Sequence record: OR846089.1
DNA from: a phage
Strand: one strand, 5' to 3'
Length of the DNA stretch: 1,291 bases
Position 1 is the stretch's first letter. The number at the start of each line of letters is the position of its first letter. Made by a program: the position numbers. This document shows positions 1-1,291 of the stretch, piece by piece.

Positions 1-1291
1 GCAAGATCTGACGGCGACGCCGCCCTGACAACATCATAATGTTTAATCGACATCGAATTTCTCCCGTGTACAGGAACAGAGTTAAAAAGCCGGAACCGGA
101 ATCAAATCACAGGATGACCATCTGCCAGTGGCTGGTCGTAAAAAAAAGGCCGCGCCATGCGCAGCCGAAAATAAAGGGATAACGATGATAGTTTGAGAAA
201 AACAGAAATAACACTTTTGTGGCAAAGCATGGTGCCGGGTGCCTCCCGGTGAATTCAGTATCAGCACCTGAATCCGCGATTATCCCATATACCTGGTTGC
301 TGATTGCCCCTCCGCACAGGGGGATTCACCATACGAAATTTTTTTAACAAACGCTCAGCATGTCAGGCAACAGTCAACTGCCTGAATTGTGAGGCATTTA
401 ACATTTCACTGTCCGGTGTCTTTCCTGTAATAAAAAGCCCGCAAAAGAGAGTCAGGGCAGATAAGTGTGGTGTGGTGCGTTGTACTGGATTCGAACCAGT
501 GACCGATTGCTTAGAAGGCAATTGCTCTGTCCGGCTGAGCTAACAACGCAGAATACCGATAATGGACCGCCACCGGGGACTCCGAATCTCGCACAGGGTG
601 ACGTTCTTTCCTGATGAGCTAGTGGCGGTTGGTGGCCCTTGCTGGATTTGAACCAGCGACCTGGCGATTATGAGTCGCTCGCTCTCACCGCTGAGCTAAA
701 GGGCCGATTGCTGAATAATAACGACGCATGATTAACTCCGCAATCTCATCCGTTACGAATGATTAAATCCTGTACTTCCCGCACCGTCTGCTCAAAACGT
801 TCAGTCTCCAGTTCAACGCCAGTTGCACGACGTCCCAGCGCCATCGCTGCTTTCACTGTCGACCCCGACCCCATGAAGAAATCTGCAACCAGGTCTCCCG
901 GACGACTGCTTGCGCTGATTATCTGCTGCAACATTTCTGCCGGTTTTTCGCACGGATGTTTCCCTGGATAGTACTGCACCGGTTTATACGTCCACACATC
1001 GGTGTACGGCACCTGCACCGTCACGCCAAAATACCGCCGCAGATGCTTATATTCACTCTGTAGTTCCGCATACTGCCGGTTCAGTGAAGTATACGTCTCC
1101 AGCAGCTGGTGGTGGGGCTTCTCCAGTTCACCCCGCTGATGCTTCTCTTCTGCCACCCGGGCAAACAGTGCCTGTAATTTCAGATAATCGCTTTCGTTCG
1201 GCAGCTGCCACTGACCGGCACTGAACCAGTGCGACACCATGTTTTTCTTTCCTGTGGCATCTGCAATCTGTTTTGCCGTTATCCCCAGGAC

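Follow-up and report, generated by a model that had tools for sequence, protein, structure and literature searches.

The stretch of DNA analysed here, 1,291 nucleotides of phage sequence record OR846089.1 (the window), contains about 300 bp between its tRNA genes and a terminator that appear to be empty. The Rfam match and the homologues described below show this segment to be a copy of a small RNA (sRNA) gene of the STnc100/PasD family, which is widespread in prophages and has already been catalogued. Positions 140-370 of the minus strand, in the moron zone, most likely constitute the complete gene of a base-pairing sRNA that would be expressed in the lysogen and depend on Hfq, with a predicted length of about 195 nt. 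According to the alignments the allele is a recombinant, in which a 5' domain of the type found downstream of stx2B is joined to a PasD-type terminator and 3' flank. All features of the sRNA locus are located on the minus strand. A summary of the features is shown in Table 1.

The gene order is that of a lambdoid prophage late operon, with a DNA methylase gene, tRNAs, cargo slot, sRNA, nanS-p-like esterase and lysis genes. The late region of a lambdoid prophage is the location expected for STnc100, and the window contains the methylase, the tRNAs, the RNA and the esterase. In locus L001 and in the Stx2a phage L002 the order is Q, methylase, tRNAs, (stx), RNA, esterase, holin. Window positions 1-46 correspond to positions 2791-2836 of L002, the start of a 645-aa ORF downstream of stx2. 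In E. coli genomes the nanS-p-like esterase is annotated as SASA family esterase or DUF6645. Its CDS begins 88 nt past the terminator, which is the only terminator-like site in the window (minus strand). The best match to the window among complete E. coli genomes is 92.9% over 98% of the length.

Table 1. Features of the sRNA locus and its neighbours in the window
Feature	Position	Strand	Basis
nanS-p-like esterase CDS start; ATG 53-51, RBS GGGAG 65-61; exits the window	1..53	-	
Predicted sRNA, ~195 nt, STnc100 core and PasD-type 3' module; 5' end inferred at G334	140..334	-	
Intrinsic terminator, PasD type; stem 166-148, T8 147-140	140..166	-	
U-rich, mostly unstructured linker; putative Hfq-binding and seed region	167..226	-	
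5' domain closed by P1 (334-327 with 234-227)	227..334	-	R1 match, pairing
Hairpin P5, CCGGG-AGGCA-CCCGG (235-249 in the initial annotation)	235..249	-	
Hairpin P4, GGAUUCAG 275-268 with CUGAAUUC 258-251 (253-273 in the initial annotation)	251..275	-	
Pseudoknot 3' strand GCUGAU, within the P4 loop	260..265	-	complementarity
Pseudoknot 5' strand AUCAGC, directly after P2	299..304	-	complementarity to P4 loop
Hairpin P2, CCCCU 322-318 with AGGGG 311-307, loop GUGCGG	307..322	-	Rfam consensus
-10-like TAAAAA 346-341, preceded by TGT 349-347 (extended -10-like)	341..349	-	alignment
-35-like hexamer TTGCCT, putative promoter	365..370	-	conserved spacing
Moron (cargo) slot, 39-bp junction	393..431	.	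collinearity with L002
tRNA-Arg trailer, common to Stx2 phages	432..472	-	sequence match
tRNA-Arg (anticodon TCT; argO of Stx phages)	473-549	-	ARAGORN
tRNA with CAT anticodon	630-705	-	ARAGORN

Family assignment and 3' module exchange

The initial annotation had offered, as one reading of the segment, a small structured RNA ending at the terminator at 140-166, and had proposed an Rfam search. STnc100 (RF02076) was matched at 363..191 of the minus strand with 116.4 bits against a gathering threshold of 47 (E-value 1.8e-26, model positions 1-206), which places the RNA in the STnc100/PasD family. The match covers both of the hairpins listed in that annotation, as two helices of the family; the closing helix and the CCCCU/AGGGG, GGRUUCAG and CCGGG-AGGCA-CCCGG hairpins of RF02076 were all aligned with high posterior probability. 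The window lacks the 3' terminator hairpin of STnc100 itself (model positions ~174-199, CCCCUCUCCGGAGGGG), and a different terminator is found about 30 nt later. A covariance model built in this study (R1) scored 81.8 bits at 224-335 of the minus strand. Matches are present in 2771 of 5426 complete E. coli genomes. The copy in phage Stx2a_1447 scored 153.8 bits with STnc100 and is located 75 nt after stx2B, in agreement with PMC12370729. Weak Rfam matches to asX2, rseX, mmgR, Plastid-ycf2 and SMAD5-AS1 were all far under their thresholds and were rejected. Nearly all matches from a 15-mer pattern search of genome contigs were chance matches in unrelated phyla, the real one being locus L051 (Atlantibacter).

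STnc100/EcOnc27/sRNA103 of O157:H7 Stx2 phages has the same promoter block and the same P1, P2, P4 and P5 helices as the window, as well as the same location in the late-operon moron zone upstream of a nanS-p-like esterase; the Stx2a_1447 STnc100 copy is 92% identical to window positions 306-392. The window differs from this type in having a PasD-type terminator instead of the STnc100 family terminator, no convergent anti-sRNA partner and no stx genes upstream. Owing to a shorter variable segment between P2 and P4, the core of the window RNA measures 112 nt, compared with 123-133 nt in the EcOnc27/sRNA103 type, and the pseudoknot reads AUCAGC/GCUGAU as opposed to CUGGUG/CACCGG.

PasD1 and PasD2 of EPEC E2348/69, which are homologues of EcOnc13, have a terminator (GGCUGCGCAUGGCGCGGCC-U8) identical to that of the window, and the next ~50 nt are nearly identical. 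The promoter layout, the aligned 5' end and the architecture of P1, P2, pseudoknot and P4 are also common to both, and like the window RNA the PasD genes lie immediately 5' of a sialate esterase or holin. However, the PasD seed UGUGAG is missing from the window, where the linker, which is about 20 nt longer than in PasD, aligns with the seed region and reads UAUCCCUUUAUUUUC. PasD1 and PasD2 lack the 3' strand of P5, their P2 loop is 3 nt shorter, and their pseudoknot is AAUGAUC/GAUCAUU. With the R1 model PasD scored 34 bits and the window 82; at the BLAST level the 5' domain of the window is of STnc100 type and not PasD.

The AsxR/AgvB anti-sRNAs, the convergent partners in the EHEC 'sRNA dyads', share the niche of the window RNA, the moron site 3' of PR', and are bound by Hfq (PMC4104026). 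Their genes are located on the opposite strand and the RNAs measure 51-60 nt, whereas the terminator in the window is unidirectional, since no T-run is present on the plus strand. Their conserved ~42-nt 3' region, which ends in ...UUGCCCGAACCCACUCGGGCUUUU or ...GCCCGAACCCACUCGGGCUUUU, had no match on either strand of the window with up to three mismatches, and an Rfam search of the Stx2 phage locus likewise did not return AsxR or AgvB.

The terminator recognized initially at 140-166 is indeed present on the minus strand, as a stem of eight pairs, seven of them G-C, followed by T8. Together with the U-rich linker (167-226), the GC-rich hairpin (148-166) and U8 (140-147) have the sequence characteristics of an Hfq module. 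At least 11 unique viral-contig copies of the window 3' module were found. The core class of the window occurs with at least eight different 3' modules, and its 3' module with three core classes; these combinations show that the family exchanges its 5' domains and 3' modules freely. Some prophages contain two to four tandem copies.

Promoter and RNA ends

In 79 of the 91 unique homologues TTGNNN precedes the -10-like hexamer by 17-19 nt. The -35 variants TTGCCT, TTGTCT, TTGATT and TTGACT were found over four unrelated upstream contexts, and the block GTTT(G/A)TTAAAA is invariant (alignment A1; 85-sequence alignment). The -10-like hexamer is followed after 6-7 nt by the position aligned with the 5' end of PasD1 (window G334), which was determined by RNA-seq at NC_011601 1060260 (PMC8550237 table S6). 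An RpoD ChIP-exo signal was reported at the Salmonella STnc100 promoters (PMC10794520). TAAAAA does not have the consensus final T, and a generic promoter scan returned a weaker overlapping pair, CTGACA/AAAAAT at 366..338, rated weak (9/12).

The alignments suggest that the RNA probably has its own conserved promoter instead of relying on release from the tRNA transcript, as had been proposed in the initial annotation. That proposal retains some support from Sakai, where the homologue exceeds the length expected from the proximal promoter by about 65-75 nt: EcOnc27 (Sakai) was ~235/247 nt on a Northern blot (PMC4104026 supplement), and 171 nt are predicted from the proximal promoter, which is of the same type. 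Because of this excess the RNA may start about 60 nt further upstream or be processed, and by analogy a longer form of the window RNA from near 390 is possible. A search of 393-431 for a distal promoter of such a transcript yielded no -35 and, at best, poor -10-like hexamers.

It is conceivable, although on the unlikely side, that the RNA is real and has no promoter of its own, being cut by RNase P, RNase E or a similar enzyme from a longer transcript and ending at the 148-166 terminator. The source would be the tRNA or late operon transcript here, and the 3' UTR of the stx2AB mRNA in Stx phages. The poor promoter content of 393-431 is in line with such processing, as are the absence of a convincing terminator between tRNA-Arg (473) and the RNA and the position of the EcOnc27 5' end, ~30-45 nt after the stx2B stop and near the start of the homology (window 392). 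Processing does not account for the -35/-10 spacing, which is fixed in four unrelated contexts including one directly after a DUF3927 stop codon, nor for the RNA-seq 5' end of PasD, which is located 7-8 nt past the -10. The abundance of the RNA in uninduced EPEC and EHEC cultures likewise argues for an own promoter. The two routes are not mutually exclusive.

Structure of the 5' domain

Both hairpins of the initial annotation, CCGGG(235-239)-TGCCT-CCCGG(245-249) and ATTCAG(253-258)-N9-CTGAAT(268-273), are present at these coordinates, the helix of the second being actually 8 bp long (251-258 with 268-275). They correspond to P5 and P4 of a 108-nt 5' domain that, on comparative grounds, consists of four helices (P1, P2, P4 and P5) and a pseudoknot. 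The support for this structure is comparative, not thermodynamic. Single-sequence folding was no better than for shuffled sequences (RNA z = -1.08) and the MFE structure omits P1; folding of 335-472 gave no significant signal (z = -0.62). With plain MAFFT, P4 and the pseudoknot were out of register in several subfamilies (51-72% pairing), and a covariance-model alignment was used instead.

As had been anticipated for a structured RNA, the hairpins are kept in the homologues and compensatory changes are found. Among 64 distinct homologues 93.2% of the helix cells are paired, compared with 39-49% when the partners are slid by 1-3 columns. Double changes were found at 13 pairs, compared with a mean of 5.9 after shuffling; none of 500 shuffles reached 13. 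In the 64 distinct homologues P4 has changes on both sides at all eight pairs, and P1, with 97.9% of the cells paired, at five of eight; extra copies have the P1 strands GCGUGGUG/CACCACGC and AUAUGGCG/CGCCAUAU. P2 (99.1% paired) is nearly invariant, and in P5 (99% paired) two pairs never vary and three vary on one side only, so these two helices provide no covariation support.

The pseudoknot was assessed by an alignment-free test of self-versus-cross complementarity. Its strands are complementary in 29 of 29 distinct sequence combinations, with at least 6 bp each and nine sequence classes, and none of 100,000 permutations of loop and partner reached the observed score. Further sequence classes are present in extra copies. 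No description of a pseudoknot covarying through at least nine classes was found in the literature searched.

A covarying, pseudoknotted domain exceeds what a typical Hfq sRNA needs, and for this reason the base-pairing model may be incomplete. Tentatively, the 5' domain could be a functional module in its own right, distinct from the swappable Hfq/seed module and serving as a protein or ligand site or as a cis element. If this is true, prophages attach interchangeable seed/terminator cassettes to the domain, at times in two to four tandem copies, and the domain would bind a host or phage protein or a small ligand, or act in cis on the late transcript.

Expression, proposed function and alternatives

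Homologues of the window RNA have been detected by Northern blot, Hfq-CRAC and RIL-seq (PMC4104026, PMC8550237, PMC5331693). EcOnc13 is ~187 nt long, EcOnc27 is destabilised without Hfq, and the Hfq-CRAC peak lies over the 3' module (PMC4104026 supplement; the peak was mapped here). PasD1 and PasD2 of EPEC were validated by Northern blot and depend on Hfq for stability; in RIL-seq the chimeras fall within their last ~50 nt, and the seed UGUGAG complements the CUCACA motif of the RIL-seq targets (PMC8550237). STnc100_4 was Northern-positive in EDL933 (PMC5331693).

In the proposed mechanism a sigma-70 promoter (-35 at 370-365, -10 at 346-341) would start the RNA near G334 in the lysogen, and the terminator at 166-148 would end it at ~195 nt. 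The 3' module, with U-rich stretch, hairpin and U-tail, would bind Hfq and offer a single-stranded seed for pairing with mRNAs in trans, as in the PasD1/PasD2 experiments and as suggested for EcOnc27/sRNA103. The target set should differ from that of PasD, because the seed UGUGAG is replaced. The 5' domain, at or near +1, probably shields the 5' end and serves as a constant scaffold. The terminator would also halt transcripts without Q modification, from the tRNAs and cargo, before the esterase and lysis genes, and Q-modified late transcription would read through it.

An unlikely interpretation is that the 5' domain acts in cis, as a riboswitch-like sensor or as a leader that binds a protein or RNA polymerase, and controls whether transcription passes the 148-166 terminator to reach the esterase and lysis genes, the short RNA being a by-product. 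The succession of promoter, covarying pseudoknotted domain with invariant joining nucleotides, linker, intrinsic terminator and CDS has this appearance, and the place upstream of holin/endolysin is kept in divergent phages. In Stx2-type alleles, moreover, a downstream CAUGGUG offers the 3' strand of P1 an alternative partner, with covariation between the two. The free reassortment of 5' domains and 3' modules, terminators included, is, however, hard to reconcile with an aptamer coupled to its expression platform. Inspection of the window allele found no alternative pairing longer than 6 bp between domain and terminator, and no Rfam riboswitch or leader family was matched. Tandem copies (two to four in some prophages) and a locus with the RNA 3' of the lysis genes are also at odds with a leader, and according to the Hfq and RIL-seq data relatives act in trans.

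The initial annotation had also considered the segment as an empty or decayed Stx cargo slot. The flanks are collinear with L002, where window positions 432-1289 correspond to 5004-5875 and 306-392 to 3576-3662; the slot between them is filled in L002 by the stx2A-stx2B cassette (3663-5003, 1341 bp), and the window has 39 bp. In the E. coli prophage L245, ~745 bp with terB-like and DUF3927 genes take the place of window 353-431. By this collinearity the empty slot is real and limited to 393-431, so that the position given initially was right and the extent was not, the other ~260 bp being an intact sRNA gene. That the whole segment is a non-functional spacer left by the loss of stxAB is very improbable. 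The stx2AB cassette does map between window 392 and 432, but only these 39 bp (393-431) differ, and the remainder is kept in Stx2 phages downstream of stx2B. A blastn comparison with the phage locus revealed no stx-derived sequence in the window. The segment also has structure-preserving compensatory substitutions, and for 140-392 decay is contradicted.

The arrangement of a constitutive promoter and a terminated ~190-nt transcript ahead of lysis genes is reminiscent of lambda PR'-tR'. An origin of the RNA from the late promoter PR', as a short Q-antiterminated leader like lambda 6S RNA or StxS, would fit this resemblance, since 6S RNA and StxS are likewise short terminated late-region transcripts that Q-modified polymerase would read through; it is nevertheless highly doubtful. 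Transcription of 6S RNA and StxS begins at PR', directly after Q, and Q loading is their defining feature, whereas the window RNA is downstream of methylase, tRNAs and any cargo, the methylase gene and tRNAs lying between it and Q, and is found alongside a separate PR'-like unit. In L051 a promoter-like site distinct from that of the RNA is located, with a short terminator, right after Q, and the RNA follows 190 nt later. The RNA is found with different Q families (PF06530 and PF03589), tandem copies exist, and in Stx phages PR' and StxS are upstream of stx and the RNA is downstream (PMC7873438).

A small protein, encoded by the 42-aa antisense ORF 219..347(+) or by a sense ORF from the AUG in CACCAUG, is extremely improbable in spite of RefSeq pseudo/hypothetical CDSs over the homologous stretch and ribosome footprints on some EDL933 copies (PMC5331693): in 47 of 91 unique homologues the antisense frame is closed within 57 nt of a conserved anchor, the cores (112-133 nt) vary in length by non-multiples of three, the sense ORFs all cross the terminator into unrelated 3' modules, and substitutions keep base pairs, not codons. 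The absence of a credible gene from 168-472 had been recognized initially, and no conserved protein-coding frame was found among the homologues; ORF 82..267(-) encodes 61 aa from a GTG start and crosses the terminator, and the other ORFs, of 29-79 aa, are not conserved. The RefSeq 'hypothetical protein' CDSs antisense to the RNA are probably spurious.

The preferred reading remains a terminated, Hfq-dependent sRNA of a family that is already known; the gap in the window is a standard sRNA gene that can be annotated with Rfam and that about half of the complete E. coli genomes contain. The base-level insertion point of stx2AB and other morons is immediately upstream of the sRNA promoter. The covarying pseudoknot is a precise target for structure probing and mutagenesis. 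Because a constant 5' domain is combined with exchangeable 3' cassettes, alleles that are all annotated as 'STnc100' may regulate different targets, and such differences matter because an association with HUS risk has been reported for SNPs in the stx2-linked copy (PMC12711010).

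Identity of the RNA and layout of the window

All features of the window lie on the minus strand. The initial annotation was correct in its hairpins (235-249 and 253-273), its description of the open reading frame and its terminator, and had proposed a small structured RNA. A search of all Rfam families found STnc100 (RF02076) at 363..191 (-), with 116.4 bits (gathering score 47) and an E-value of 1.8e-26; both hairpins are consensus helices of this family. In phage Stx2a_1447 STnc100 (153.8 bits) starts 75 nt past the stx2B stop, and the published description agrees with this position (PMC12370729). 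EcOnc27/sRNA103 is an Hfq-bound RNA downstream of stx2B (PMC4104026, PMC7873438, PMC12711010), and EDL933 has 11 copies, one of them Northern-positive (PMC5331693). PasD1 and PasD2 of EPEC are STnc100 relatives (bioRxiv 10.64898/2026.05.13.724894) that are Northern-validated, Hfq-stabilised and RIL-seq-mapped (PMC8550237). Window positions 140-480 were matched in 2771 of 5426 complete E. coli genomes (about half), at up to 12 places per genome; the whole window at >93% identity was absent from all complete E. coli genomes searched. For a prophage sRNA gene, that of the window is routine and has been catalogued before. At another place in the E. coli 2014C-3011 prophage (L001, 12833-13018), Rfam also reports isrK and C4 antisense RNA.

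Features of the window in order of transcription
Feature	Position	Strand	Remark
DNA methylase CDS, 3' part	down to 746	-	first in order
CAT-anticodon tRNA	630-705	-	ileZ in Stx-phage annotation
argN, degraded	550-629	-	remnant of second tRNA-Arg in Stx-phage tRNA clusters
tRNA-Arg(TCT)	473-549	-	
Interval of the initial annotation	168-472	-	between tRNA-Arg and terminator
Strong intrinsic terminator	stem 166-148, T8 147-140	-	
nanS-p-like esterase gene, start	ATG 53-51	-	last in order

The argN remnant has lost 12 nt in the anticodon-arm region and carries substitutions; no tRNA was called there by ARAGORN, and its equivalent is labelled 'tRNA-OTHER' in some genomes. Only one strand of the terminator carries a T-run, and the conserved 3' end of convergent anti-sRNAs (AsxR/AgvB) was not found in the window. 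Between the terminator and the esterase RBS lies a mini-palindrome, CCGGTTCCGGC, followed by T5 (84-99, -), which is too short for a terminator call.

Structure of the 5' domain

The 5' domain (core) comprises helices P1, P2, P4 and P5. A pattern scan of IMG/VR yielded 120 loci and 91 unique copies, whose cores vary in length (112-133 nt) and sequence. A covariance model built from a hand-annotated alignment recovered 68 copies in 57 sources, some without a match to the search pattern. In the resulting alignment, which was fitted to the model and hence leans towards structure, standard pairs filled 93.2% of helix cells, against 39-49% with partners slid by 1-3 columns, and both partners had changed in 13 pairs, whereas 500 shuffles averaged 5.9 such pairs and never reached 13. 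Compensatory changes at 8 of 8 pairs bear out the second hairpin, which lies within P4 (251-275); in P1 (334-327 with 234-227) 5 of the 8 pairs show such changes. The first hairpin, P5, is kept but is uninformative for covariation, as is P2, because both are nearly invariant; in PasD the 3' strand of P5 is deleted.

The segment directly after P2 is complementary to the P4 loop, forming a pseudoknot (window AUCAGC 304-299 with GCUGAU 265-260). This helix has at least 6 bp in all 29 distinct sequence combinations, which fall into nine sequence classes (for example CUGGUG/CACCGG, AAUGAUC/GAUCAUU, ACUGGAU/AUCCAGU and UCCAGCA/UGCUGGA), and extra copies hold further classes. In this alignment-free test, none of 100,000 permutations of loop partners between classes was as complementary as the observed set. 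A pseudoknot goes unmentioned in the main paper that compares these RNAs.

Where the 3' module is of the Stx2 type, the P1 3' strand CACCAUG has an alternative partner to the 5' end, a downstream CAUGGUG (Stx2a_1447, L002 3468-3483; equivalents in L224, L135 and L230). The pairing covaries, CAUCAUG alleles having CAUGAUG downstream, and could be a conformational switch; the window allele lacks it.

A recombinant allele and its predicted transcript

PasD1 and PasD2 (E2348/69, published coordinates) were aligned with the window and the Stx2-phage copy. By this alignment the window allele is a recombinant: its promoter block and 5' domain follow the EcOnc27 type, whereas from the terminator on it is PasD-like, with the hairpin GGCUGCGCAUGGCGCGGCC-U8 identical and the next ~50 nt nearly so. 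The terminator of the STnc100 Rfam model is missing from the window alignment. The RIL-seq-derived PasD seed UGUGAG is not present in the window, whose linker (167-226) is U-rich, longer and ends UAUCCCUUUAUUUUC. The window's 3' module, linker plus terminator, has at least 11 unique viral-contig copies and is found in phage JLK-2012 at 93.8% identity. Among the 91 unique copies, the window core class combines with no fewer than 8 different 3' modules and the window 3' module with 3 core classes. Because cores and 3' modules occur in so many combinations, the STnc100/PasD family is, on sequence grounds, modular, recombining at the invariant P5-P1 segment. Two to four tandem copies of the gene, ~260-480 nt apart, occur in viral contigs (L128 2323-3351, L230, L198, L188, L242, L185, L191, L233, L150); pseudoknot sequence and 3' module differ from copy to copy.

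In 79 of 91 unique copies P1 begins 6-7 nt downstream of a T(A/T)A(A/G)A(A/G) hexamer, which TTGNNN precedes by 17-19 nt, a spacing kept though the -35 region comes from four unrelated sequences. G334 aligns with the PasD1 RNA-seq 5' end, and Salmonella STnc100 promoters are bound by RpoD (PMC10794520). From these data we infer a promoter that sets the 5' end of the RNA at G334 and predict a 195-nt RNA, 334..140. If the PasD-type 5' end applies, RF02076 positions 1-29 (window 335-363, -) appear to cover promoter DNA, namely the -10 region and spacer, and not a transcribed part.

The Sakai EcOnc27 copy (prophage Sp5, L246 476-722) has the same promoter type as the window, and 171 nt are predicted vs ~235/247 nt on Northern. 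The extra length would put a 5' end close to where the block common to the window and Stx2 phages starts. An additional 5' end further upstream, near window ~390, would account for the size; this could be a transcription start or arise by processing of the stx or tRNA transcript. A good promoter near ~390 was looked for and not found. Release from the tRNA transcript, as initially suggested, thus stays alive as a partial route, but the inferred promoter and its kept spacing speak for transcription of the RNA on its own.

Genomic context and proposed mechanism

The segment had also been read as a possible empty or decayed cargo slot. In Stx2a_1447 the counterpart of window 432-1289 is the methylase-tRNA block, and this alignment stops 56 nt short of the stx2A start. 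It resumes 46 nt past the stx2B stop with window 306-392, and window 1-46 matches the start of a 645-aa esterase-like ORF. In place of the 1341-bp stx2AB cassette the window therefore has 39 bp, 393-431: by this alignment the slot is real, but small and adjoining the sRNA promoter. In E. coli 14EC047 the equivalent slot is occupied by ~745 bp with a terB-like pseudogene and a DUF3927 gene, and in E2348/69 a 247-aa ORF and DUF3927 precede PasD. A terB-like gene, at times with DUF3927, lies directly upstream of the RNA in close and divergent prophages (L245 1867-2459, L176 6618-7043, L190 7288-7716) and may be a recurrent moron partner.

In divergent phages the RNA lies between Q, with or without the terB-like gene, and holin and endolysin (L172, L176, L190), or between an Rz-like ORF and the small terminase (L221). 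A coupled riboswitch-type attenuator is argued against by the free reassortment of 3' modules. In an Atlantibacter locus (L051), Q is immediately followed by a promoter resembling PR' (TTGATT ... TATGCT) and then by a short terminator (4581-4669), an arrangement like that of an StxS-type leader unit; the RNA, with its own terminator, comes 190 nt later. This separate unit and the tandem arrays (up to four copies, in L128) rule out the RNA as the PR' leader.

Homologues share no conserved frame, and the non-coding reading stands. The 42-aa antisense ORF 219..347(+) carries the label '(pseudo) hypothetical protein' in relatives. Of 91 unique homologues, 47 close this frame no more than 57 nt from the conserved anchor, and the differences in core length are not multiples of three. 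Sense ORFs without exception cross the terminator and extend into unrelated modules. The CDSs or pseudogenes that RefSeq calls 'hypothetical protein' antisense to the gene (L001 9079-9204, L003 1801-2199, L004 1698-1939, window 219-347 (+)) are probably annotation artefacts, since the frame is not conserved.

The most likely mechanism, based on experiments with relatives rather than with the window allele, would be base pairing in trans, dependent on Hfq, by an RNA that the lysogen expresses. A further effect of the terminator would be to keep transcription without Q modification out of the esterase and lysis genes. As judged from the comparisons, the linker and putative seed of the window allele are distinct, and the pseudoknotted 5' domain is elaborately conserved.
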